Shown: one piece after another, positions 3,040-47,380 of the stretch | Position numbering within the stretch: the stretch's first letter is position 1 | How the letters are laid out: each line of letters begins with the position of its first letter | NCBI RefSeq assembly: GCF_964194155.1 | Contig: NC_135902.1 | Location: 52,328,001-52,392,000, forward strand | Reading direction: 5' to 3' | Length of the DNA stretch: 64,000 nucleotides | Source: Cetorhinus maximus | Lineage: Eukaryota | The notes under the pieces: generated by a model | Database searches by the model: none | Told to the model about the DNA's origin: nothing | The model's input: only the letters and a program-made list of their open reading frames with translations | Program-made: the position numbers and the translations under genes

Positions 3040-3500
3040 TAGTGTATTAAAACTCCCCAAGGTGTTTCATAGGAGCATATCAAACAACATTTATCACCAA
3101 ACTACATAAGGAGATATATATTAGGACAGGTGACCAAAGGTTTTGTCAAACAGGTAGGCATTAGGGAATATCTTAAAGGAAGAGAGAGAGGCTGAGACCT
3201 TACGGCCCAGGCAGCCGAAGGCACGGTTGCCAATCACGTGGAGCGATTAAAATCTGGGATGCTGAAGAGATCAAAATTGGAGAAACGCAGAGATTGCAGA
3301 GAATTGTGGGGCTGGAGGAGATTAAAGAGATTGGGAGGAGTGAGGCCATGGAGCGATTTGAAAACAAGGATCAGAATTTTGGTACTGAGGCACTGCCAGA
3401 CTTGGAAGCCAGTGTAGGTCAGTAAGAACAGGTGGTGATAGATGAACAGGACTTGTGCAAGTTAGGACATGGGCAGCAGAATTTTGGAGAGTTGACAGAG
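3040..3500 (-). mobile_element. L2-like LINE 3' fragment
   Basis: Similar to copies at ~31660-31875, 38460-38680 and 40960-41150. Confidence 0.6.
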
Positions 3501-3580
3501 AGTGGAAGGTAGATGGGTGACCGGCCAGGAGAGATGTTTCAAAGCATCACGTCTCATGGAGTGTGTTTGTATTTCCCTAG

Positions 3581-4038
3581 GCCGGCAGTGTGTGTTCCAG
3601 CAGCTGAGGCTCCCCGGCATGGTGAGACACCAGCGCTATCTCCGCTGCACTTGTTGTAAGGAAGGTCACTACACTATGGCGGATCTCCACCACCTCGACT
3701 GCTCACAGCCTGACCCAGAGGCCGAGGACATCGATGAGCGCTACACCCCCCAGCAGCGGGCGGCTGTCCTGCGGGTGCTGAACACAGCCTCCCGGGAGGA
3801 GCTGGCGGGAATCAAACTGCTGCGTGGCCGGAAGTCGGCCAACATTGTGGAGTATAGAGATGAACGTGGGCCATTCACACACCTGCGGTGTCTACTGGAG
3901 GTGCCGCTCTTCAAACACAAAACCATAACGAAAGTGTGTCAGTCAATCCTGAATCCCTGTGAGGAGCCTGGGAGGAGAGACAAGAAACTTCAAGGACTGA
4001 AGTTTATCAAACCTGATGTAGAACGAAAGCGACTTCTG
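3581..4038 (+). CDS. TEFM: TEFM coding exon 2 (HhH-like N-terminal domain)
   Basis: Acceptor tttccctag|, donor CTG|gtaagg. Peptide ...VLRVLNTASREELAGIKLLRGRKSANIVEYRDERGPF...FIKPDVERKRLL resembles vertebrate TEFM. Confidence 0.95.
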
Positions 4039-4069
4039 GTAAGGGCTGAAGTAAACGGCAAGGAGGCTG

Positions 4070-4230
4070 TACAAACAGTACACTGGATATACAAACAGTA
4101 CACTGGATATACAAACAGTACACTGGATATACAAACGGTGCACTGGATATACAAACGGTGCACTGGATATACAAATGGTGCACTGAATGTATGATTGGTA
4201 TACTGGATGTAGAATAGGTATACTGGATAG
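4070..4230 (+). repeat. 20-bp minisatellite (TACAAACAGTACACTGGATA) in TEFM intron 2
   Basis: About 6 well-conserved units followed by decayed ones. Confidence 0.9.
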
Positions 4231-4707
4231 ATAATTAGTATACCGAACATACTCAAAACCCTGAGCTCCTGACAGGCGAGAATTCTGTCGGTGAGCTGCA
4301 GATGACACTGGTGGACGTGCCTAATTACAACATGGCTTATTTAGACCATTTCCTTTAGAAATGTGAGGACAGCAGTTTATAATGCGGGACTGGTATTTGA
4401 TGTTGATACAGAATTGAAAAGCCCGACAACAGAAAGTAAGGTTCTGTTGAAGTGTGTTCGGATGTAAGATTTTGAATCTATAGATGTGATGCTTGGTTGA
4501 TGCTGTTGAAACTGTCTGTGGTGAGGTGGTTTGCTTTGTATGTGCATGCACTTTCCAGAGTGGAGTTCCTGAGCTGAATGTTGCAGGTTGGTGATGTCTG
4601 GCCTACCGCAGAAATAGCCTTTATGTAAGAATACTGTGCGCATGGAAATTGCACACTCTGACCGGGAAAGACGTCCTACCTAAATATATCCTCTCATTTA
4701 TCACAAG

Positions 4708-4857
4708 GCTGCAAAAAGCATTGTGTCAGTCGTGTTTGGAATCCGTAAGATTGCCTGGGCTCACGTGGACCGGAATCTGACTGTTCTAGACTGGAATCAG
4801 GAGACGAGTCATCGCTATATGAAAGGCACCTACCTGCCCTCCGTCTACCTTGAGGAG
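4708..4857 (+). CDS. TEFM: TEFM coding exon 3
   Basis: 150 nt, phase 0/0, cacaag|GCT...GAG|gtaagt. Encodes AAKSIVSVVFGIRKIAWAHVDRNLTVLDW...YLPSVYLEE. Confidence 0.95.
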
Positions 4858-5399
4858 GTAAGTCGCTCAGCAGGTTTTTCTCTCTCCGTTCTCCTGGGCT
4901 CCCACTGCACTCTGCCAGAGAAGTGGCCAGTCCAATTATCGCCAAAGGCTTGTATCCTTTCAAAGATTCAAAGTGGAGGGGTGAGCTAATTGAGGTGTTT
5001 GAGTCGATTCAAGGAATTGATAGAGAGAAACTGTTTCCTCTGAATTTGGGTTGTCAACTCTGTTTGGATGAATTCGTGGAGGTTTCATCACATGACCTCC
5101 TCCCCCAGCCTAAACATCGAGTGAAACAGCCTTATCCCCCATCACTAATATTTTTCTAATGAGTAAATATACCGTTCAAAAAGAATAAATAATGGGTTTT
5201 GTTCAGAGAAGATTAATCCTCAATTCCTGGAGACTCCAGATCAGTACAGGAGGGTTGGCAATGGGTTTCTGGAGTACGAGGAACCTAATCTTAGATTTAG
5301 ATTTAGAGTTATTAGATTTAGAGCCCTTATTCACAGGGCAGTGGAAATCTGGAACTTTCCTTCCTAAAAAGGGGTTGAGGCTGGAGGATTTTTGTTTAA

Positions 5400-5740
5400 T
5401 TCATTCATGAAATGCTGACGATACCAGAATTTGTTGCCCATCCCTAATTGCCCTTGTTCAGAGGGCATCTGAGAGTCAACCACATTGCTGTGGGCCTGGA
5501 GTCACATGTAGGCCAGACTGGGTAAGGACAACAGATTTCCTTCCCTAAAGGGCATTAGTGAATGCAGATGGGTTTTTATTACATTCGACAATGGTTTCAT
5601 GGTCGTTATTAGACTTTTAATTCCAGATTTTTATTGAATTCAAATTTCACCATCTGCCGTAGCGGGATTCAAACCCGGGTCTCCAGAGCATTACCCTGGG
5701 TCTCTGGATTACTAGTCCAACGACAATACCACTATGCCAT
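5400..5740 (-). mobile_element. tRNA-derived SINE (inserted in a CR1 3' fragment)
   Basis: A-box TGGCATAGTGG and B-box-like GGTTTGAATCCC on the - strand; homologous to 48432-48795. Confidence 0.85.
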
Positions 5741-6422
5741 CAATTGAAAATTTCAAAGCTGAGGTTGATAAGATTTTTGTTAAGGCTGGGGTATGAAGGA
5801 TTACAGAACCAAGGCAGGTAGATGGAGTTAAGATACAGATCAGCCATGATCTAATTGACGGAACAGGCTCGAGGCCATCTCCTGTTCCCAGGGAACTGTG
5901 ATTCAGCTTAAGTTAGAGCAGGAGAAGGGTACTCTGCCCTGTGGAGAGGTGCATGCCTCAGCTCACTGCCTGTCCCTCAGTGGCCTCTGGTATTAGCTGC
6001 TGCTCCTCTACAGATCACAGCGGTTTAGAAACAGACTATGTCACTATCCTGAATACTCCTGAGATCTGCAGAAGGTATATGTGCGGAGAGGGGGTCAAAC
6101 TGGCCAGTATCCAAGAGGGCACAGATTTCGAATAATTGGCAAAAGTTCCAGAGGTACACAAGGGGAATTTTATTTTTATGCAGCAAGTTCTGATCTGGAA
6201 TATGCTGCCTGAAAGGGCAGGAGAAGCAGATTCGGAATTGGATAAATACTTGAAAAAGAAACAGTTTGCAGGACCGTGGGGCAAGAGCAGGGAAATGGGG
6301 CTTTCAAAGACCTAGCACAGGAGCAATGGACTGAATGGCCTCCTGTGTGCTGTAAGATTCTAATGTCTTTCCAGATTCCTTGAAAATTCTAACATCCCTC
6401 TTTCTTTTCCATTTATTTGCAG

Positions 6423-6854
6423 ATCTCCACGGCCGTCTCTAAAATCCCCAAAGCAGATTTCTTCATCTTGGAGAAGCCCAGCATCTCGACTCAGAACACC
6501 AACCTGTTCCCTGTGACTCTGCACTTGCGCACAATTGAGGCCATGCTACACGGGCTGCTGGGGGGCAGCTTCCTGGAGGATGGTCAGCACAGGGTGCTGA
6601 GCGTGGTGCGTGCTGCAATTGGGAAGCACTTTGAATTAATGGTGGGGGAATCCCGGACCAGCGGGAGGGAACTGGTGCTGCAGCTCATGGTTGACTCGGT
6701 GATGCAGGAGCACCCACGGGTGCTGTTTCCCCGGGACACACTGGCCCGCTATAGGAGACTGTTTCAGAAGGGAAGTGCAGATCGGGGAGAGGAAATGTGC
6801 GATGCTTTGCTGCAGGCTGTTGCTTTTTACGAATTTCTGTTTAACAGGCCTTAA
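6423..6854 (+). CDS. TEFM: TEFM coding exon 4 (RuvC/RNase H-like pseudonuclease C-terminus)
   Basis: Long polypyrimidine tract then tttgcag|ATC. Encodes ISTAVSKIPKADFFILEK...EEMCDALLQAVAFYE, ending TAA. Spliced CDS is 1077 nt = 358 aa. Confidence 0.95.
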   Translation: MSTAVSKIPKADFFILEKPSISTQNTNLFPVTLHLRTIEAMLHGLLGGSFLEDGQHRVLSVVRAAIGKHFELMVGESRTSGRELVLQLMVDSVMQEHPRVLFPRDTLARYRRLFQKGSADRGEEMCDALLQAVAFYEFLFNRP

Positions 6855-7026
6855 ATATCACATCACGATTAAAGAGGGACTTGATCAGTTACCACCAGTA
6901 TCTTAACAGGTGCCAGTCATGGTCATCCAAGGGCACTGAGGTCAACGATTGTAACCCATTTTGCGCAGAGCATTTAGTACAGAGGGCTGAGCGCATTGCA
7001 AGCAACGGTGAGGAGTAACTTCAGCC

Positions 7027-7240
7027 TAAAATAAAAATAGGAAATGCTGGAAATAGTCAGCAGCTCAGGCAGCATGTATGGAGAGAGAAACAGAGTTAAA
7101 GTTTCAGGTTACTGACCTTTCATCAGAACCGACCCGAACGTTAATGCTGTTTCTCTCTCCACAGATGCTGGATGAGCAGTTGACTATTTCAGCAGTTTCC
7201 TGTTTTTAGTTCATATTTCCAGTATCCGCAGTATTTTGAT
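7027..7240. mobile_element. Palindromic Penelope-like-derived repeat just downstream of the TEFM stop
   Basis: Inverted arms GAAATGCTGGAAATAGTCAGCAG...CTGATGA core (- strand)...CCACAGATGCTG...GACTATTTCAGCAGTTTC. Confidence 0.75.
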
Positions 7241-7399
7241 TTTCAGCTTGTTGCTCAGAGACTATTGAATCAATTCTTCTTGCTTTGTCAAACAGTTTGC
7301 TCCTGCCTCAGTAACGTTAGAGATGATGTTCCCTCTCAACATGTTTGAAGAAAGAACAAACTTCCTTTTAAATGGCAGCTCTCATGACCTCAGTGTCTG

Positions 7400-10700: not shown

Positions 10701-10960
10701 TTAATAGCTGAGACTGGGGTGGGGAGAAGAATATTACTCTCTCTGAAGACACTGGGAATAAAGTTCTTTGCTACTAGCTCAGTCTCAAGTGGCAGTTCTT
10801 TCTGTGGAAGACCAGCTAGGCTGTAATCACAGCTGACAAAACTGTGGTGGATCAGGGGACAGCTCGTCTGTTTTTTTCACCAAATGTGGTTCTGCCCCCC
10901 ACCCCGTCCAATTAGATTAAATTTATTAGTGGCCATCTTTGACTTTTATTAAACACAGAG

Positions 10961-11191
10961 ATAAAAACAAAAAACTACTGCGGATGCTGGAAATCCAAAA
11001 CAAAAACAGAATTATCTGGAAAAACTCAGCAGGTCTGGCAGCATCGGCAGAGAAGAAAAGAGTTGACGTTTCGAGTCCTCATGACCCAGTTCTGTTGAAG
11101 GGTCATGAGGACTCGAAACGTCAACTCTTTTCTTCTCCGCCGATGCTGCTAGACCTGCTGAGTTTTTCCAGGTAATTCTGTTTTTGTTTTT
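10961..11191. mobile_element. Palindromic Penelope-like-derived repeat (near-perfect ~90-bp arms)
   Basis: 10996-11087 is the reverse complement of 11100-11191 with ~3 mismatches. Confidence 0.85.
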
Positions 11192-13490
11192 GACTTTTAT
11201 TTATGACTTCTAGTTCTGGTCTCCCCTGCAAGCAGAAACATTTTCTCGTGTCTACCCTATCAAATCCTTCCAGAATTTTCAGAAGAAAAAAATCACCCTC
11301 CGCCATTTTTCTAGAGAAAAGGCCCAGCCTGATCAATCCTTTCTGATAGGGATTAGCTCAGTTTTGGCATCATCCTTGCAAATCTTATCTGAGCTTCTCC
11401 AGTGCCTCTATTTCCTCTTTATAATATGGAAACCAGACTGCAGTTTTCCTGTAGCACACTTATGTCTATCCACTTCACACTCGCTTGAATGCAGTGAGCA
11501 CTCTCTGAAGCTCCCTCACCTCCCCCAGCCAATTTTCAATATTAGACCTAATAAGGAACTTATACAGAGGAACCAATGTTCCTCAGTGCATCAGCCTGTG
11601 CGTTGAGTATAAAATTCACCAAACCAAAGTGGGAGGTGGAACATTTTCTGTTTCAGCCACCAAAACCAGGTCTATAATTAGCAATGAAGTTTAGTGCTGA
11701 ATTAGGGAGTTTTGTTCTCCAGGCCAAAGTTTGTTTACAACTGTCTTAAGATGTTTCAAACTCATTTGATATAGGATCTCCAAAGCCAATATATCAAAGA
11801 AATCTTCTTCACCCAGTTTGATCAGGGATTGAAACCAAAGACCAGAGTGTAATTCAGGGCACCACAATGTTTCCAACTATAGTGGCTTAAGCACAGAGAG
11901 GATAGAGTGATAAGGCCAACTTTCCACAACATGGCCATTTTCCTGCTGCCAGCACCCACAAGTGATCAGTTGTATTGAAATCACAACCTCTGGTTTGTAA
12001 GTCCACCAGGGCTACTGTGCCCATCACACATTCACACTGTCCCGGACAGGCTACTGGGTAGAGATGAGGAGTATCCTTGCTAATTGTCCCCTCTGCATAT
12101 CGCAGTGGCCCCATTTACTGTCTCACCCCAGACCAACTGCATTAACACAGACTGGTGACTGCATTCTATATTGTATGATGTACAAAATTAGATATCAATA
12201 GAGGATTCTACAAACACAAATTCATACCTGCCAAAAGATTGACAAGTCATTTTGTAATCTCTTTTTAAAAAAAAGAGATTAATGTAATTTTGCTCTCCTC
12301 CTTGTTGGATTAAGCAAGGCAACTTACAAATCCCTTGCAGCATTAAAAGGTCAGTAAGAACTGCGGAGTACGACACACAGTTCAGAGAAATGCTTGATTT
12401 AAATTGAGAAACTTTTGCTGTACATAACATAGGAGTTTGCAGTTATACAGCATTTCTCTGATTTATTTAATTCCATATCCAATGACAGAATGGGGTATAC
12501 AATCACACTATACAATACAGGGGCACTCCATCCTTTATAAGATCCACGTAATATAAAAATTGCAACATTAAAAAGCCTTAGTGGACAAGAGGATGGATCA
12601 TAGCCATTCATGATTTATGACAATATTCCCTCTGACCCTGGTTGAGGCTGGCAGACTCCAGTGAGGCATTTACAAACTGGGTCCTCTTCTGAGAGGAAGA
12701 CACTTGTCTAATCTCACTGCTGTCTGTAACTGGCCCTATTTATAACACTTGTGGAAGCTTTCTAAACCAAAGTTTGTAGCTTTGGGTTGAAAGGGTTTTT
12801 TGTGGGGGTGGGTGGGGGGTGTTTGGCACAGAAAGGGAGGGAAGGTTCAGAGGAGACAGAAGAAAACAAGGAGAAAAAAAGGTAAATCAAGACTGCTCGT
12901 TAAACAATATGTGTAATTAAATACTGTTGTAGCCTTGAGCTGGGAAGGGGTGGGCAGAGAGGGCAGGGATATACAAGAAAAAATACGAGTCAGCATTCCC
13001 ACTCCCAATCCCTATCCAGTGACCCCTGCTGGAATGTGTGCAGCGCTAATGTCGGATGAGCACAGGATTGGGTTTGGATGCAATGCCCCGCACAGTCAAA
13101 TAACACCCTCTTTCTTCTACTCGCACATGGATTCTTAGGCAAGATAGCAGAAGGTACCAGCAGGACAGGAGGGGAGGGTTTGTTATTTCTCCACAAGTGT
13201 TATAAATAGACTCCACGCACTCAAAATAAACTATTATGCATCGGATTTTTACATTCTTAGACAGCAGATACTATTATTCCCACTGTAATTAAATTAAGAA
13301 CCCAGCATTCTCCCACACAGTTTCACATCACTTTACTGTACAAAAAATGATTTCACAAAACACACACATATACACAGTGGACAGCAATTACCAAGTAAAA
13401 GACCAGGGGGAAAAATACCCCAGTAATACAGTCTGCCTTGAGTGTGTAATAATTCACTGTACAATAAGTACTGTCAACAAGTTGGGATCT

Positions 13491-13569
13491 TCATGGAAAA
13501 CTAGCGGCAAGGGCTTCCAGAGTGCTTTTAGGCAGCTCCAAGTGCGCACTATCCAAATAATGCAGAAAC
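13491..13569 (-). CDS. ATAD5: ATAD5 coding exon 23 (terminal)
   Basis: tttgcag|G. RFLHYLDSAHLELPKSTLEALAASFP then TGA. Total spliced CDS is 5781 nt = 1926 aa. Confidence 0.96.
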
Positions 13570-13631: not shown

Positions 13632-14280
13632 GGCCAGAATTTTTAGCTTGGTGGGTGGGCGTGTGCCTGACCCGACAGAGCGTGAAGTGATGCACGATCA
13701 GCCGAGCGTGCCGACATCAACGTGCAGTCGTGCGATAGCTCGGTTGCCGGGCACACGCCGGAGCCAGTAACGCGCCCACCGGCAATTAAAAGGCCTGTTA
13801 AGGCCATTAAGTTATCAATTGACGTTAATCTTTCACTGCCCGTTCAACCTAACGGTTGGCGAGCAGGCAAAAAAGGTCAAGCGGCCTTTGCATTTTTTTG
13901 GAAACCTCATCCACGGGTGGGATGCGGTTTCCAAAAGCAAATAAAAAAAAGTTTTTATTTTATTTGTAATTGAAAACGACAATGCTCGTGTGACAAAGTC
14001 ACATGAGGGGACATGTTTTCTTACATTTTTCTGCTCTTTTAAAAAAAAATGTCTCTTCCTCTCTAGGTTATTCAGCGCTCTCTTGCGCAAAGTTAGCGCT
14101 AGTTCCGCTCACCCTCCCTCCTCACCCCGCCCGCACAAGCAGCCCCGAGTGCTGCCACTCGCATATCGCCCTGGGCGAGCCTTAATTGGCCCGCTAGTAT
14201 GAAATCGCGGTGTGGTGCCAATCGCGGGCGGTGGTTGGCTTCCCGACTGATCCCGCACGCCAAGGGCAAAATTCTTCCCC
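13632..14280 (+). mobile_element. GC-rich MITE-like element, family A
   Basis: Termini GGCCAGAATTTT / AAAATTCTTCCC, internal GAAACCTCATCC...GGATG.GGTTTC palindrome. Homologous to the copies at 26.7, 33.0 and 34.5 kb. Confidence 0.85.
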
Positions 14281-14400: not shown

Positions 14401-14526
14401 CACCGGCGGGCATTGTTGCGGGTGGGATGGGAAAATTTGGAGAGCCGTTAAAAGTCAATGGCTCTCCAAATTTTTCCGTCTGGCTCGTGACGATGCCCAC
14501 TGGTGTCGGGGACGGAAAATCCCGGT
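14401..14526. mobile_element. Short palindromic MITE-like element
   Basis: CACCGGCGGGCATTGT...AAAATTTGGAGAGCC [gttaaaagtcaat] GGCTCTCCAAATTTT...GATGCCCACTGGTG, an imperfect ~45-bp stem. Confidence 0.7.
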
Positions 14527-15587: not shown

Positions 15588-17304
15588 CTGAAAGACAGAC
15601 AACACATGCATATTTCAGCATTTCCCAAGTTCAACCTCAGAAAAAAAATCCTTCAAAAGGTGCTACTGATCTCACATTTATTTTCTCCTGAATGTGCAGC
15701 AGCTTCTCTGATTTTAAGCCGCTTGTACTGACCACACATCTCTATCCTTCACCTTCCTGCAGCTTGATCTGGATATCAAAGTGACTGGATATCAATCTTA
15801 CACCAATCAATACTCACTACATATCAACTTGTTATTCTTTGGCAGAAAGATCAGCTTCAGTTAAAATACCCAGAGGATTGAAAGCAGAGTCTCAGTCAGG
15901 AAGGTTAGGCTTTCTTGTTGGGAGTTCCTGCGCACAGGTGTGAAATGGGACGGAATGGGCTCTTTCAGAGAGAGAGAAGGAAAGGATCTCCCTGAGTGTC
16001 TTTGTTTGACTACATAAGAAGTTATGGAAATATGACAATCGGCAGGAGGGCTAAGTGGCAACTGAGTTGAAATGTCAGCATGGCAACTTAACACTCACTC
16101 AACTCATGCAAGGAAGGGAGACAAGGGAGAGACAATTTGCAGCAAGTGATTATTAAACTTTTTGGTACTGCTCGCTTTAGTGACTTCACCAACATTTCAA
16201 AGCACTAACTAGACTTTGAACCAAATTGCTACCAAACCATTGACAGGAGCAGTTGAAAATATTTTCTAGTTACTGGAGCATATTGGAGATTTGGTGGGGT
16301 GGGTGGATGGATGTGAAGGTAGGAAACAGCGAGCTACAGGTTACATAAATTAAACGGAATTCCCCATACATTAATAATCACTGACAAAGTGACAAACTTA
16401 CTAGAGGAGTGTTGGTGCAAAGTTGAGATATTTGAAGCCTACCATTTATCCTGTACTTGTACAATACATATGCAGAATAATAACCCAAGCAGGTCAGTAA
16501 AGTGCATTTATATATTTTATCAAAAGGTTACGGTCAATCTGAACGCTGGAAGGTCGTACAGGAAATAAACAGGATGAATAACTAGTTAACTAACAGCAAC
16601 AAAAACAGGTCAAGGGAGGCATTGGCCCTTTGTCTAATGCTCTGGTATCTTTTACATCTTTTACATCCACCACAATCAATGGGAGAGACAGATCTTTGAT
16701 TTAAGATCACATCTGAAAGACAGTTTCAGGCAATTCACCACGCTACAGGAATGATCCATTCAAGGTCTAGTATGAAACTTAAATCTACATCTTTTGACTC
16801 AATCAAGTTGACAATGGATAGATTAAGGGAAAAAGAGCCCCCAAGATAATAATTTTACCTATCAAAGGATGTGTGAGGAAACACAGCGAAATTAATTAGA
16901 TTAAAAATTAAGGAGATTTCAGAGCCTGGACGCAAGGCTAAAACAGTGTGGAATCTCTCACAACATCTCTCGTCGTATAAAGAAACACATTGTGATGTTT
17001 GTATGAAATGTTTGACCCATTCTGCTCTGTTGCAGCTGAAAGAGGAAGTAATCCCAAAATAGCACTATCTCAAGTCTCATCTGGGACCGTGAAGGCATGG
17101 TTGGTTACACCTCAAAGATCACCCTTCTAAGAATGTGGATGCTTGTTCATTCTACACTCTTTCCAGGACCTGCACTAACTGAACTGTAAACAGTACACTA
17201 CAGAATGTCACTTTGGCTCAGCAGTGACATACACATTTTTTAAACAGGGAGATGAGGGTCTGAGGTTCACTTGGGCATATAATCCAGACTGGTAGCCAGT
17301 GCCG

Positions 17305-18396
17305 AAGCGGCAGTGCAGAGGGAGCGCCGCGCTGCTAGAGCGGCAGTGCAGAGGGAGCACCGCGCTACTAGAGCAGCAGTGCAGAGGGAGCGCCGCGCTA
17401 CTAGAGCGGCAGTGCAGAGGGAGCACCTCGCTGCTAGAGCGGCAGTGCAGAGAGAGCGCCGCGCTACTAGAGCGGCAGTGCAGAGAGAGCACCTCGCTGC
17501 TAGAGCGGCAGTGCAGAGGGAACACCGCGCTACTAGAGCGGCAGTGCAGAGGGAGCGCCGCGCTACTAGAGCGGCAGTGCAGAGGGAGCGCCGCGCTGCT
17601 AGAGCGGCAGTGCAGAGGGAACACCGCGCTACTAGAGCGGCAGTGCAGAGGGAGCGCCGCGCTACTAGAGCGGCAGTGCAGAGGGAGCGCCGCGCTGCTA
17701 GAGCGGCAGTGCAGAGGGAGCGCCGCGCTACTAGAGCGGCAGTGCAGAGGGAACACCGCGCTACTAGAGCGGCAGTGCAGAGGGAGCGCCGCGCTACTAG
17801 AGCGGCAGTGCAGAGGGAGCGCCGCGCTGCTAGAGCGGCAGTGCAGAGGGAGCACCGCGCTACTAGAGCGGCAGTGCAGAGGGAGCACCGCGCTACTAGA
17901 GCGGCAGTGCAGAGGGAGCGCCGCGCTACTAGAGCGGCAGTGCAGAGGGAGCGCCGCGCTACTAGAGCGGCAGTGCAGAGGGAGCGCCGCGCTACTAGAG
18001 CGGCAGTGCAGAGAGAGCGCCGCGCTACTAGAGCGGCAGTGCAGAGGGAGCGCCGCGCTACTAGAGCGGCAGTGCAGAGAGAGCGCCGCACTACTAGAGC
18101 GGCAGTGCAGAGGGAGCGCCGCGCTACTAGAGCGGCAGTGCAGAGGGAGCGCCGCGCTACTAGAGCGGCAGTGCAGAGGGAGCACCGCGCTACTAGAGCG
18201 GCAGTGCAGAGGGAGCACCGCGCTACTAGAGCGGCAGTGCAGAGGGAGCACCGCGCTGCTAGAGCGGCAGTGCAGAGGGAGCGCCGCGCTACTAGAGCGG
18301 CAGTGCAGAGAGAGCACCGCGCTGCTAGAGCGGCAGTGCAGCGGGAGCACCGCGCTGCTAGAGCGGCAGTGCAGAGGGAGCACCGCGCCACTAGAG
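17305..18396. repeat. 33-bp minisatellite, ~33 copies (CTAGAGCGGCAGTGCAGAGGGAGCGCCGCGCTA), in ATAD5 intron 21
   Basis: Visible directly; 11-aa periodicity in the four overlapping ORFs. Confidence 0.98.
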
Positions 18397-18640
18397 CTCC
18401 CTACAAGGGCAACTAGGGATGGACAATAAATGCTGGCCCAGCCACTGAAGCCCACATCCTGTGAATGAATAAAAAAAAATCTTCAGTTCTGGGGGCTGTG
18501 GTTCGAACCCTCTGCTATGGTACTATAACTCAGTTTCCCCTTTGTCTTTGTTTATGGTTAGCTCATACTAGTTTGGACATAGATACCCGTGGTCCCGCCC
18601 CATGGGAAATTCTATCCCACCACTGGCTTGTATTTTTTTT

Positions 18641-20195
18641 ACATTTTCAATACTGTTGAAGTTATCTGTACTGAACTCCATTTCAGGCATTTCAGCAAAG
18701 ATTTAAATATGCTAAAATCTTGCCTGCACTTCTAAATCTACAACTCATCTTTGCATCATCAGTGACTAACTAGACAGCCTAGATTGATACCGAGATCCCA
18801 GATTATTTACGTACATCAAGACTAGAAGAGGGTTCAAGCTCAGACTGCTAGGATACCGCGCTCCACAGTTACCCTACCTTACCAACACCCACTCTGTACT
18901 TTCTCTTTTGCCAGTTAGTCATCTACATAAATGTCCTATTCCGAAGTTAACACACTGCTCCGACTGACAATCTCAGTCTTTCACAGAGTCAGGCATTTAT
19001 AAAAATAAAACCATGGTGGCAGAAATTTTGCACAAACACTTATTCAAGAAGTTTCACAAATTTTGCAGAAGTTAGTGAGGCAAATAACACGCCAGAGAGA
19101 ACAAGATACAAGTGTCAACTGTTAAATCCCACCTTGTGATTCAAGTATGTTCTATTTGTGGCATCACAGATGCAGAGTTTGCAGTAAAATCTTTCTGACT
19201 TCCTCTTTTAAAAAAGAGGAAGGGAAGAACTTGCATTCACTGAACATTTTCAGTCTCAGGGCATCACACAGCCAACGAAGCGCTTTCGAAGTGTGTCACA
19301 CTTTTAAAGTACAGCAGTCACTTTGTGCAGTAAGCTCCCACTGACAAAAGTGTGATAAACAACCAGGCAATGTATTGCAGTGATGTTGACCGAGGGATAA
19401 ATAACAGCTCCAGGACACTGGGGAGAACTCACTTGCTCTTCTTTGAATAAAGCCATGGGAACTTTTAAGGCCACCTGAGTAGGTTTAACACCTCTTCTAA
19501 AAGACAGCACCGCTGATGGTGTAGCTCTCCTTCAGTACCACACTGGAATGTTGGCCCAGATTTTATCCTCAGACCCTGGAGTGGGGCTTCAGATTCTACT
19601 GACTCAGGGGGAGAGCACTACCCACTGAGCCAAATGGCTAGTGCAGATTCCTATACTTATAGAATCATTAAATCACTGAGATAAATACACATTTTTTTCT
19701 TCACATATAATAATGAGGGAGCCATACAATTTAAAAGCTGGGGAATCTCTACAAGCTCAACTGCACCACCAACAGGTGTTTACTGGCATTGCACCCACAC
19801 AGACAGTGCCGTACTTGGAAAAAAACAATCATTCTTGGGACGTGGGCACCCCTAAAGAGCCAGCTTTTTTTTCTTGTGCATCTCTTGGGCCTTCTTCTTG
19901 AAGCACTTACGTAGATGACTAACTGGCTAATGAGAGTACAGAGTGGGTGTTGGTAAGGGAGGGTAACTGTGGAGCGCGGTATCCTAGCAGTCTGAGCTTG
20001 AACCCTCTTCTAGTCTTGATGTACATAAATAATCTGGGATCTCGGTATCAATCTAGGCTGTCTAGTTAGTCACTGATGATGCAAAGATGTGTTGTAGATT
20101 TAGAAGCAGAGGCAAGGTTTTTAACAGCTTTAAATCTTTGCTGAAATGCATGAAATGAAGTTCAGTACAGATAACTTCAACAGTATTGAAAATGT
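18641..20195. repeat. Long inverted repeat: arms 18641-18926 and 19911-20195, spacer ~984 nt
   Basis: Manual reverse-complement alignment gives ~93% identity, with only 2 mismatches across ~18747-18900. Confidence 0.95.
19225..19635 (-). mobile_element. Ancient SINE (DeuSINE-like) inside the inverted-repeat spacer
   Basis: Homologous to 7400-7765. Confidence 0.75.
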
Positions 20196-23743: not shown

Positions 23744-24582
23744 CTGGTGTAAAAGAACAGAAAACAATACCCTTATTTTCATGGAACAAAACAAGGCTGC
23801 ATATGTAGTGATGTCATGAGTATCAGCCAGCTTGGAGATGATTGCAATTCCCCTGTCAATCATGCCTGGAGACAGCTGTGCAGTCAGTAACTGGGATTGA
23901 TTCCACGCACATAATTTGTTTAATGTAACTATCCTCCAACTCACTGCATTTACTGGAGAAATAATCCTGCTTTTATTGGAAGGCTATGTTGTAGTTTCAG
24001 GATGGGTTCTGTTTGCTGCAGTTCATAGAGACTCTGCTTCAATGGGCTGTTCGTTGTAAAATAGACTGTTTGCTGCGAGTCCAGCCACAAGTCCCACCAA
24101 TGTTTGACTTATTGGCCAACACAGTGGCGTCAATACTCACTTTGATAAAATAAGGTAATCTTATGTGAGTTTTAAAAGCTCAATGCGAGGCTTGGTGAAA
24201 GCACTTCATATTTCAACATATGGCCTTGGATGGTTGGTGAAAACAACAGCCTTAACTGGGCGGTTAGCAGCATCTGGTTATGTTCTGGATCCCCCATTAT
24301 CTGTCATAATGGAGGGGACTGCGCTCCACTTCCCCACCAGGCTTACACTGGAAACTAATCAAGAATTCCCCAATTTCAGGGGTCAATGCCAATGAATGAA
24401 TATCCTAGCATGTGAATGAAGACAAATACATCATAAACGAAAGACGATGTAACTTTAATCACCAAACAGCAATTACGGAATGCAAACAATAAATGAAGCT
24501 AGGCAGTGTCCCACACATTTTGCTTTTATCTTAGTGTCCCACACATGCTTTGTTCTGGATTAACTCTGGTTTGTGATAGGGA

Positions 24583-24825
24583 TCAAAAACAGAAAATGCT
24601 GGGAAAACTCAGCAGGTCTAACAGCATCTGTGGAGAGGGAAAAAAAAAGAGTTAACGTTTCAAGTCCTTATGGCTTCTTCAGAGCTCTGAAGAAAAGTCA
24701 TAAAGACTCATAACGTTAACTCTGTGTTTCTTTCTCTCCACAGATGCTGTTAGGCCTGCTAAGTTTTTCCAGCATTTTCTGTTTTTGTTTCAGATTTCCA
24801 GCATCTGCAGTATTTTGCTTTTATC
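24583..24825. mobile_element. Palindromic Penelope-like-derived repeat
   Basis: Inverted arms centred on the perfect palindrome TTCTTCAGAGCTCTGAAGAA (24675-24694). Confidence 0.85.
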
Positions 24826-44947: not shown

Positions 44948-45092
44948 AAATAAAAGCAAAATACTGCGGACACTGGAACTGCAGATAGCAATTCTGAAGA
45001 AGAGTTATATTCAATGTGAAACATTGACTCTGTTTCTCCCTTCACAGATGCTGCCAGACCTGCTGAGTATTTCCAACACTTTGTTTTTATTA
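44948..45092. mobile_element. Internally deleted copy of the palindromic Penelope-like repeat
   Basis: AAAGCAAAATACTGCGGA...CTGAAGA...GAAAC...CACAGATGCTGCCAGACCTGCTGAG. Confidence 0.7.
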
Positions 45093-45850
45093 TTAATTAC
45101 ACATTGCTCAGTACAAGCCATCAGCATCAAATTTAGGGTTTTTCTCCAGATTCGCTATCGCCCTGAAATCCCAAACAGGATTGTGTTTCCAAATTGAAAG
45201 AAAGAACTAGGATTTATACAGCACCTTTCACAATCTCAGAATATCCCAAATGCTCACAACATTCTCACTATTGTAATGGCAGAAAACACTGCAGTCAATT
45301 TGGCAACACAGAAGCTGCTGAGGTTGTTGAAATTTCTTTAACTTTCATCTTTTTTCTTTAAGGGGAGGAAAGAACCTGTATTCACAGAGCACTTTCAATT
45401 CACAGAGCCTCATACAGCCAAAGTAGGAAACACAGCAACCAATTCGTACAAAGTAAGCTCCCAAAAAGACCAAGAGATAAATGATCAGATAATTTGTTTT
45501 TGGTGATGTTTGTTGAAGAATAAATATTTCCCAGAACATTAGGAGAACTCCCCTGCTCTTCTTCAAATAGTTCTGTGGGGTCTTTTACACCCACCCAAGA
45601 GTGCAGGTGGAATTTCGACCTTCTGACTCAAGAGATGAGTGTTATCACTGAACCAAAGCCGACACAAAGACAGGTATCCTGCACCCGGTCTCTGCTACTG
45701 TTGTTCTGAACCAGTGTACTCTGCTGGCTCATTCTCCAATCTTTCTCCATTCTAAACACACATTCTAAGCACGATCACAATTGAGCTCTGTAATAATTAA
45801 ACATCAATAGAACAAATTAAAATTAGAAAGGTACCACGAGAATCACTAAC

Positions 45851-46008: not shown

Positions 46009-46600
46009 CTAGACAACAAAAACAAAACCATGTTCATTTACAGCAACTAGCTAGAATTAATTTATGAAATGGCGATGTGATGTGATGTGCTAAAGGACCA
46101 CATTAGAGAGCAAGTGTAGTAGCAAAATGACCAGAAGTACTCGAAATAGATTATACTACGGCCATGTTATAGCACAAGTAAAACTTTCCATTTGTACAGT
46201 CCTATCGCCACATCAACCAGCTAAACATATTGATCCATGCCAGTGCACAACATGGAAACATCAACACAAGTTTATCTTTGTCCATTTGCCCAACAGGACA
46301 GTTTTTGGTATGCGTAGAAATGATGTGGAAGGAGATCTGATCCTGAAAACTACTAGGACATTTCCTGTGGTGATGGTCATGGCAAGCTGAAGGATGTTAC
46401 CACATTTCTATTTTGACCATTTTTCCCATTGTGAGGATTTATTTTTAAAATGTGTTACTAAGTTGAAGCTTGCTTTAATTGGGTTGAATTCTCAGAACAG
46501 CCCCATGCTGGGGTGTGAATCAGAAACGAGGTGAAGCATTTAGCTAAATGAGTTCAAGCAAAGGAAGCCCGTTAAGAGTCTTCTTCATCACAAAGTCATT

Positions 46601-46708
46601 CAGAGTTCTGAAGAGTCATACAGACTTGAAACGTTAACTCTTGTTTCTCTCTCCACAGATGCTGCCAGACCTGCTGAGTTTTTCTAACATTGTGTGTTTT
46701 TATTTCAC
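46601..46708 (+). mobile_element. Single arm of Penelope-like repeat with hammerhead-like core
   Basis: AGAGTT CTGAAGA GTC..GAC TT GAAACGTT AACTCT followed by the family tail. Confidence 0.75.
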
Positions 46709-47237
46709 ATTTGCCCCTCAAGCCTATTCCACTGCCGTTCATGGTTGGTTTGAACACATCACCTGCCTTGGCTCCATATGCTTTGTTACCCTAGGCTAGC
46801 AAAAAAAATCTATAATAATGCTGCAGCATCTTTATTCTGCTTTCTTAAGCAAATGCAAGTTATGTCCATTAACCTGAGGGATAGATCATAATTCATTTTT
46901 GGTATGTTTCACCATATTGTGAAATAAAGCAGCTTAGGGGATTCCAGCCAAACCTCATTTCTACTATTGTTAGCTCAACCTACCTTCAAGAGAGATTGAA
47001 GAGTTACACGTGAAAGACATAACTAGTGGATCCAGATCACAAGGGAATGCAATTGTTATATCTGATTTATGCTACGTTGCAACTTTTATTTATAAAGCAC
47101 TCAAAATATAGAAAGAAGCATCCCAAGAGGCTTCACAGTGGTGTAATGAGACAAAAATGATATTTAGTCAGTGCCTAAGAACGAAGTCAAAAACGTGGGA
47201 TTTAAAGGAGGGGAAACTCCAGTCTGTGGGGCAGAGG

Positions 47238-47380
47238 CAAAATGTTGGATATGCTGGAAATCTGTAATAAAACAGAAAATGCTGGGAACACACAACAGGT
47301 CAGGCAGCATCTGTGGAGAGAAAGAGTTAACATTTCAGGTTGATATCCCACATCAGACCCATTTTCTGTTTTTATTCTGG
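47238..47380. mobile_element. Decayed copy of the Penelope-like repeat
   Basis: ATGCTGGAAATCTG...CAGGTCAGGCAGCATCTGTGGAGAG...GTTAACATTTCAGGT. Confidence 0.7.

Follow-up and report, generated by a model that had tools for sequence, protein, structure and literature searches.

A Minimal Hammerhead Motif in a Likely Head-to-Head Penelope-like Element Insertion of Cetorhinus maximus

The palindrome and its setting

The window analyzed here is a 64,000-nucleotide stretch of Cetorhinus maximus DNA (contig NC_135902.1, positions 52,328,001 to 52,392,000, forward strand). A palindrome sits between two convergent genes that span 3496-6854 on the plus strand and 13491-61063 on the minus strand, for which Pfam gives HHH_3 and AAA domains only, and which we take to resemble TEFM and ATAD5, respectively. 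The ORF of the plus-strand gene ends at 6854, 4.1 kb from the palindrome, and the minus-strand gene, whose last exon ends at 13491, has its stop ∼2.3 kb away.

A sequence-only reading of this DNA had placed a minimal hammerhead ribozyme at the center of a palindromic repeat at 10961-11191. Every motif base named in that reading is present at 11088-11126 on the plus strand, and the palindromic setting is confirmed by arms at 10991-11087 and 11100-11196 that are 95% complementary around a 12-nt center. The extent requires correction, as the element comprises the 238 bases of 10951-11188 between 13-bp target-site duplications (TSDs). The features of the locus are as follows.

10938-10950: left TSD, 13 bp, identical to 11189-11201
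10951-11087, minus strand: tail-bearing arm, sense copy of a Penelope-like element (PLE) end, 97.8% identity to the 3' end of ORF-bearing copy L067
10951-10998, minus strand: PLE tail, unmirrored 48-nt extension, predicted distal reverse transcriptase (RT) start site
11086-11091, plus strand: inversion junction with 1-nt microhomology, at the 5'-end hot spot
11088-11188, plus strand: tail-less inverted arm, -4 to +96, predicted cDNA from a proximal RT start site
11088-11126, plus strand: minimal type I hammerhead motif, predicted cut after 11122
11088-11091 and 11123-11126, plus strand: helix I, AGTT and AACT
11092-11098, plus strand: core, CTGTTGA
11095, plus strand: core position 6, U where the consensus is A, a lineage-wide state
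11099, plus strand: extra A
11100-11104 and 11110-11114, plus strand: helix II, GGGTC and GACTC, with an ATGAG loop
11115-11118, plus strand: GAAA
11119-11122, plus strand: CGTC
11118-11121, plus strand: palindromic ACGU
11189-11201: right TSD, 13 bp, identical to 10938-10950

An inverted, 5'-truncated copy, a tail on one end and a TSD are thus found together at 10951-11188. The tail-bearing arm begins only where helix II starts (+8 from C3, which is position 0 in all arm coordinates), a 5' truncation that leaves it no ribozyme core, and its tail runs ∼10 nt beyond the point where most copies stop. We infer the distal start role of this tail from the accessible part of PMC11167929. In the parent element, the junction at 11086-11091 corresponds to a YYAGTT initiator-like or YAG site.

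A relaxed minimal-hammerhead descriptor, self-made and tailored to this motif, matched the window twice (11092 on the plus strand and 7126 on the minus strand) and gave no match in 100 shuffles. An Rfam scan returned no hammerhead family among its 25 matches at E ≤ 10. A miRNA precursor identity was rejected because the best Rfam score was 72.8 bits against a gathering threshold of 160, and the matches reflect the hairpin only.

The palindrome folds as a single hairpin (-173 kcal/mol, z -25). The predicted pairing probability of helix II falls from 0.82 when the motif is folded by itself to 0.28 within the complete arm, and it reaches 0.00 in the palindrome, where the upstream arm is present. 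The best fold of the bare motif pairs the core with the cut-site strand, where U6-U7 can pair, and in a plain co-fold of two motifs the hammerhead dimer is not the best structure. Since the other arm is without the core, the motif has no hammerhead partner in cis. These models indicate that the ribozyme is very likely inert in read-through RNA from this locus, because a 90-bp hairpin outcompetes the hammerhead fold, and that the motif is probably inert here unless it is transcribed from its own start.

The same reading had counted at least seven copies of the palindrome in the window. Seven related loci were indeed found (1799-1935, 7025-7243, 10951-11188, 24581-24824, 44989-45095, 46556-46714 and 47243-47361), but just three contain full two-arm palindromes (7029-7243, 10951-11188 and 24584-24824), and the remaining loci are single arms or remnants. 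Complementary stem II sequences had also been claimed for the related copies. Helix II does covary across copies, as described below. Small deletions have disrupted helix II or the core at 24649-24686 and 46602-46641. The copy at 1903-1933, described as more decayed, is instead a young arm that has lost its 5' part and whose helix II is compensated. This single tail arm (1798-1933) belongs to a young subfamily with a C-G-swapped helix II, and it stops against a G-rich 20-21 bp tandem repeat close to a CpG-rich region. Four family copies lie inside the span of the minus-strand gene at 13491-61063. The 56 matches in 464 kb of sampled DNA correspond to a density of ∼1 arm per 8 kb.

The parent Penelope-like element

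The link to Penelope elements that had been proposed for this repeat is supported. A search for the GIY-YIG family gave 54 matches, and at 24 of the 30 loci examined (L037-L060) the arm is present, generally ∼600 bp beyond the GIY-YIG domain. One further copy (L061) encodes a 593-aa frame with RVT_1 (E 1.2e-6; 28.8 bits, just under the cut-off of 29.6) and GIY-YIG domains, and this frame is followed by a 3' UTR and then by the motif, arm and tail. The whole motif, arm and tail also lie upstream of the ORF on the same strand, 400-240 nt before it, in 7 of 25 loci with an N-terminal ORF; others have truncated parts. The same end sequence therefore occurs both downstream of the endonuclease (EN) and upstream of the ORF start, which is the arrangement of a pseudo-LTR (pLTR). 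Because the first in-frame ATG lies ∼35 nt beyond the tail, the motif is non-coding in the parent element.

At 27 of 34 loci, a CX2-5CxxC linker lies ahead of the GIY motif in the same frame. According to the accessible part of PMC8557442, such a linker between RT and EN marks the Neptune and Nematis clades. Judged from its sequence, the parent is an autonomous PLE with RT and GIY-YIG domains and a Neptune/Nematis-type linker. Assignment to Poseidon was rejected because the CX4CXXC linker is of the Neptune/Nematis type.

The remaining 6 of the 30 GIY-YIG loci (L031-L036) form a second family without the arm and with no hammerhead match. They are 91-99.6% identical over 3.2 kb, five of the six lie on contig C24, and they may be either a different element or a large repeat that has been duplicated.

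Copies of the young lineage have a donor-like CCAG/GTAATT in the arm (11169-11177 on the plus strand of the window) and an acceptor-like AAG immediately before the ORF ATG (L174, about 1190-1290). These sites would define a candidate 5'-UTR intron of ∼95 nt, and splicing would take out the RT start sites because this intron would contain the tail. Older lineages are without the donor GT.

Assembly of head-to-head copies

The center junctions of the 30 copies closest to this palindrome, a set biased toward the query, are unlike one another. A center-unbiased set was collected with a tail 33-mer as anchor (7,731 exact matches), from which 90 of the first 92 listed copies were taken, two neighbors being dropped as they lay inside another stretch; all 90 lie within the initial 35 Mb of contig C1. 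In every one of these copies the sense arm ends 3' at +129 to +148, mostly at +133 to +137. The starts of the sense arms are spread between +79 and positions beyond -1000, and 31 of the 90 fall at -10 to +9. An adjacent inverted piece is present in 48 copies, head-to-head pLTR ends are found in 44, and 27 of these 44 are short palindromes. The tail-less arm ends at +91 to +107 in 33 of the 44 head-to-head copies. At the locus described here the arms end at +144 (tail) and +96 (tail-less), where +134 and about +99 are typical. Next to ORF-bearing copies the inverted parts are longer, at 306, 320, 401 and 1207 bp. The differing centers and the graded arm lengths, which range up to more than 1 kb, indicate that the palindrome is rebuilt at each insertion. 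Among the individual copies, L103 is a short head-to-tail partial tandem with two pLTR ends, and L063 has its ORF inverted internally, as in LINE twin priming.

These data bear directly on the earlier proposal of a non-autonomous fold-back element, in which the palindrome would be transcribed and moved as a unit and processed by its hammerhead. Short palindromes are a large size class, and the best 30 matches are 91-97% identical over ∼230 bp, as might be expected of such a unit. However, junctions vary copy by copy and the sizes form a continuous series that grades into ORF-bearing copies. In addition, single-arm stubs with TSDs begin at the same point as the palindromic arms (L122, L142 and L146), and the ribozyme is predicted to be occluded inside the palindrome. 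We consider spread as a unit very improbable. A self-propagating fold-back or MITE class was rejected since a fixed junction and length are absent among the copies.

The preferred reading of the locus is that 10951-11188 is a short insertion of a PLE end, made up of the hammerhead, 5' UTR and tail, in which two cDNAs were joined head to head, and we regard this as likely. The element endonuclease would nick both target strands, 13 bases apart, and the reverse transcriptase would copy RNA from each nick to give two short cDNAs that are then joined. Exact TSDs of at least 11 bp flank 34 of 44 inverted copies compared with 6 of 30 single-arm copies (Fisher p 1.3e-6; tallied by hand, leaving out 12 copies beyond -1000 and 4 internally inverted), and those of inverted inserts are 13-15 bp long. 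Of the 44 head-to-head copies, 19 have a tail-less arm that extends further 5' than the tail arm, 12 show the reverse, and in 13 the two agree within 5 nt. That either arm can reach further, together with the 13-15 bp TSDs, favors priming from both target nicks. Twin priming of this kind, from two internal start sites, is a reasonably probable account of how the arms arose.

Palindrome centers are unstable, and as a counterpoint to twin priming, deletions at the center after insertion could also yield variable, lopsided centers. Such deletions would accompany a second route, in which the inverted arm is made by self-priming, or snap-back, as proposed in the accessible part of PMC3846280. The arms that agree within 5 nt fit this route, as does the mirroring of arm variants, which was commoner within copies than between them (12 times against a mean of 3.0 in shuffles, with a maximum of 9 in 1000 shuffles; 27 copies). 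The mirroring counts for twin priming as well, and another 45 arm differences, which are unmirrored, count against it. Together they point to a common source of the two arms without strong homogenization afterward. Snap-back of the first cDNA cannot give a longer second arm, whereas the 19 longer tail-less arms hold up to 644 nt that their tail arm lacks, so two reads of the template are simpler. The tail-less arm also ends 3' at a fixed position, +91 to +107, which is at odds with self-priming. Moreover, the PLE protein of the anole cuts both strands in vitro and extends each of them, with two start sites, one on either side of the tail, and with uncleaved RNA as template (PMC11167929, in its accessible part). 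We consider the snap-back route improbable, and twin priming is preferred.

The distribution of 122 arm ends points to the template used in this process. A hot spot of 48 ends lies at -10 to +9, flanked by 12 ends at -50 to -11 and 11 at +10 to +29. There is no pile-up of ends at the predicted cut (+31), as only 4 of the 122 fall within +26 to +36. The location of the hot spot at the 5' edge of the hammerhead rather than at the cut site suggests that templates are mostly uncleaved and that many begin at the first helix I strand. In the parent, this point reads YYAGTT, which we take to fit the initiator consensus. The hot spot may mark the start of an uncleaved RNA at a helix I initiator, the short copies being similar to strong-stop run-offs, an interpretation for which we judge the case to be evenly balanced.

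A somewhat less probable interpretation attributes the hot spot to processing of the RNA (a 3' splice site at YAG/TTCTG), or to a protein-bound block to RT, instead of to a transcription start. A pyrimidine tract and YAG that resemble a splice acceptor precede helix I and are conserved in all lineages, and the accessible part of PMC4209133 describes a D. virilis intron that ends at helix I. In contrast, no common upstream exon was found in 21 short single-arm copies, and several ends fall at -6 to -11, upstream of the AG. RT stalling on the hammerhead fold should leave ends on the 3' side of the fold. In several short single-arm copies the TSDs adjoin the start of the arm. The stretch was found in 23 sequencing runs, one of them recorded as RNA, and all as contigs, which cannot show starts. 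In the four of these runs that were compared, the presence of the stretch was seen, and the contigs are uninformative on RNA ends.

Core position 6 and relation to known systems

The U at core position 6 had been flagged as either a natural variant or a sign of inactivity. Like-for-like 33-mers of this subfamily give 29 arms with A6 and 12,842 without it, and wider, non-identical patterns give 9,007 and 47,398, respectively; these pattern counts are of arms, and old copies drop out of the exact patterns. At the sequence level, the numbers establish a lineage-wide natural variant, and they reject copy-specific, private decay of A6. Positions 6-7 of tail-anchored loci read UU in 63 cases, CU in 27, CC in 4, AA in 3 and AU in 1. 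The canonical CUGANGA core, with A6, is thus replaced by a U6 core here and retained in older lineages. The non-A6 motifs keep the rest of the core, the extra A and the ACGU palindrome. Most of the A6 arms listed carry a GUU triplet, not GUC, and GUU is the weaker cleavage triplet.

In a tree of 51 endonuclease segments, with a midpoint root and 27 of 48 inner branches left open, two A6 copies are outermost and have the longest tips (0.14 and 0.06). Two further copies, selected because they have A6, fall among the U6 copies. C6 copies in which the helix II pair is swapped are among those with the shortest tips. On the basis of tree placement and tip lengths, the likely order, not rigorously rooted, is A6 to U6 to C6.

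Helix II has been maintained during these changes. In alignment A1, which has 27 hand-picked rows, 93% of cells are paired and three pairs have changed on both sides, a covariation that rests on few inherited events. Slid controls are 16-46% paired, and shuffles reach the same pair count in 28 of 500 cases. Helix II itself is 96% paired, and the swap from U-A to C-G occurs only in the C6 rows of A1. Among 194 parsed motifs, pair 10.4-11.4 is U-A in 175, C-G in 11, U-G in 4, C-A in 2 and other in 2, and pair 10.2-11.2 is G-U in 168, G-C in 12, A-U in 9 and other in 5. As far as aligned sequences can tell, helix II is compensated after the loss of A6.

The consequences of a change at position 6 can be gauged from other hammerheads. 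In the accessible parts of PMC3088659 and PMC7151607, a natural A6C hammerhead is slow but active and prefers Mn2+. Its cleavage rate is under 0.1 per min (PMC3088659), and a change of A6 in one ribozyme gives ∼10^5-fold slower cleavage in 0.3 mM Mg2+ (PMC7151607). Such strong slowing would fit a complete loss of catalysis in the U6/C6 motif, which would then be retained only to bind protein or to act in a promoter. So would the lack of arm ends piled up at the cut site, the ability of U6-U7 to pair with the cut-site strand, and the proliferation of PLEs without a hammerhead (PMC8557442, accessible part). On the other side, the natural A6C hammerhead is active, an anole motif cleaves only with protein (PMC11167929, accessible part), and here the remaining core, extra A and ACGU palindrome are kept while helices continue to be compensated. 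We give loss of catalysis somewhat less weight than its opposite, and lean slightly toward reading the U6/C6 hammerhead as a ribozyme that has been slowed or needs protein, and that would still have its fold under selection in the parent. The fullest scenario is doubtful but worth stating: The recently most successful lineage may have swapped the universally conserved A6 for U and then C with helix II still compensated, keeping the hammerhead fold as a damped or protein-switched 5' leader at the transcription start, and the short copies would be twin-primed strong-stop products.

The literature searched, with Repbase/Dfam and supplements outside its scope, yielded nothing on cleavage by U6 hammerheads and no account of this shark family or of a U6 PLE hammerhead. 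Such core variants may already be listed by Lunse et al. or in the supplements of PMC4209133.

The inverted-pLTR structure and the minimal hammerhead are already known. As described in the accessible parts of the reports cited here and below, EN+ PLE insertions with inverted pLTRs plus a tail (Pen2a_Av and others, PMC3846280; PMC8557442 Fig. 2; D. virilis Penelope, PMC2377424) share with our copies the head-to-head inverted pLTR, the tail on one end, the TSD, the graded 5' truncation and an RT-GIY-YIG parent. In contrast to those insertions as described, an ORF-less miniature of ∼240 bp is here a major size class, arm ends form a sharp hot spot at the 5' edge of the hammerhead, and TSDs are 13-15 bp rather than the 8-10 bp of rotifer examples.

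The motif resembles the minimal hammerheads of metazoan PLEs (Cervera and De la Pena 2014, PMC4209133) in its type I topology, short helix I, G10.1-C11.1 pair, extra nucleotide between 9 and 10.1, palindromic 15.2-16.2, and occurrence both as dispersed single motifs and as opposite-strand pairs. It differs in that the dominant young lineages have U or C at position 6, the core variant described there being U3-A8. PAc (Poseidon of Anolis carolinensis; PMC11167929) likewise has a hammerhead ∼100-140 nt upstream of two end points that flank the tail, and it uses an uncleaved RNA template, as we propose here. Unlike in PAc, the motif and tail in the shark element are non-coding 5' UTR, the linker is a CX4CXXC of the Neptune/Nematis type, and the core is non-A6. 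The A6C hammerhead of phage Bcep176 (PMC3088659, PMC7151607), slow and favored by Mn2+, is also a natural change at position 6, and C6 occurs here too. Bcep176 is, however, a single phage example, whereas here there are tens of thousands of copies, mostly U6, on a minimal dimer-type scaffold. Non-LTR retrozymes (10.64898/2026.07.22.740005) are similarly non-coding and PLE-derived with a type I hammerhead, but they are head-to-tail tandems with one motif per unit; this identity was rejected because the palindrome at 10951-11188 is head-to-head with one complete motif.

The new observations are the genome-wide counts of the core change, the compensation that follows it, and the junction statistics on 90 copies. 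Hammerhead function in PLEs and the origin of inverted ends are both treated as open questions in the accessible parts of PMC8557442 and PMC3846280. A core change of a normally crippling type, amplified to tens of thousands of copies beside older A6 lineages, offers a natural series on whether cleavage matters, and the junction statistics yield a testable model of twin priming. If true, strong-stop twin priming would explain head-to-head pLTRs across the whole PLE class. The locus itself is probably a harmless by-product.

Other repeats are also present in the window. A 33-bp minisatellite at 17174-18480 has more than 33 copies that are 93-96% alike, and several of its reading frames stay open over long stretches. 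Long inverted repeats ∼1 kb apart (190 bp at 96% and 77 bp at 94%) occupy 18641-20195, possibly as a young DNA transposon or an inverted retroelement end. A hairpin center at 14404-14500 belongs to a separate palindromic repeat family with relatives at 13982, 26961, 33282 and 34787.
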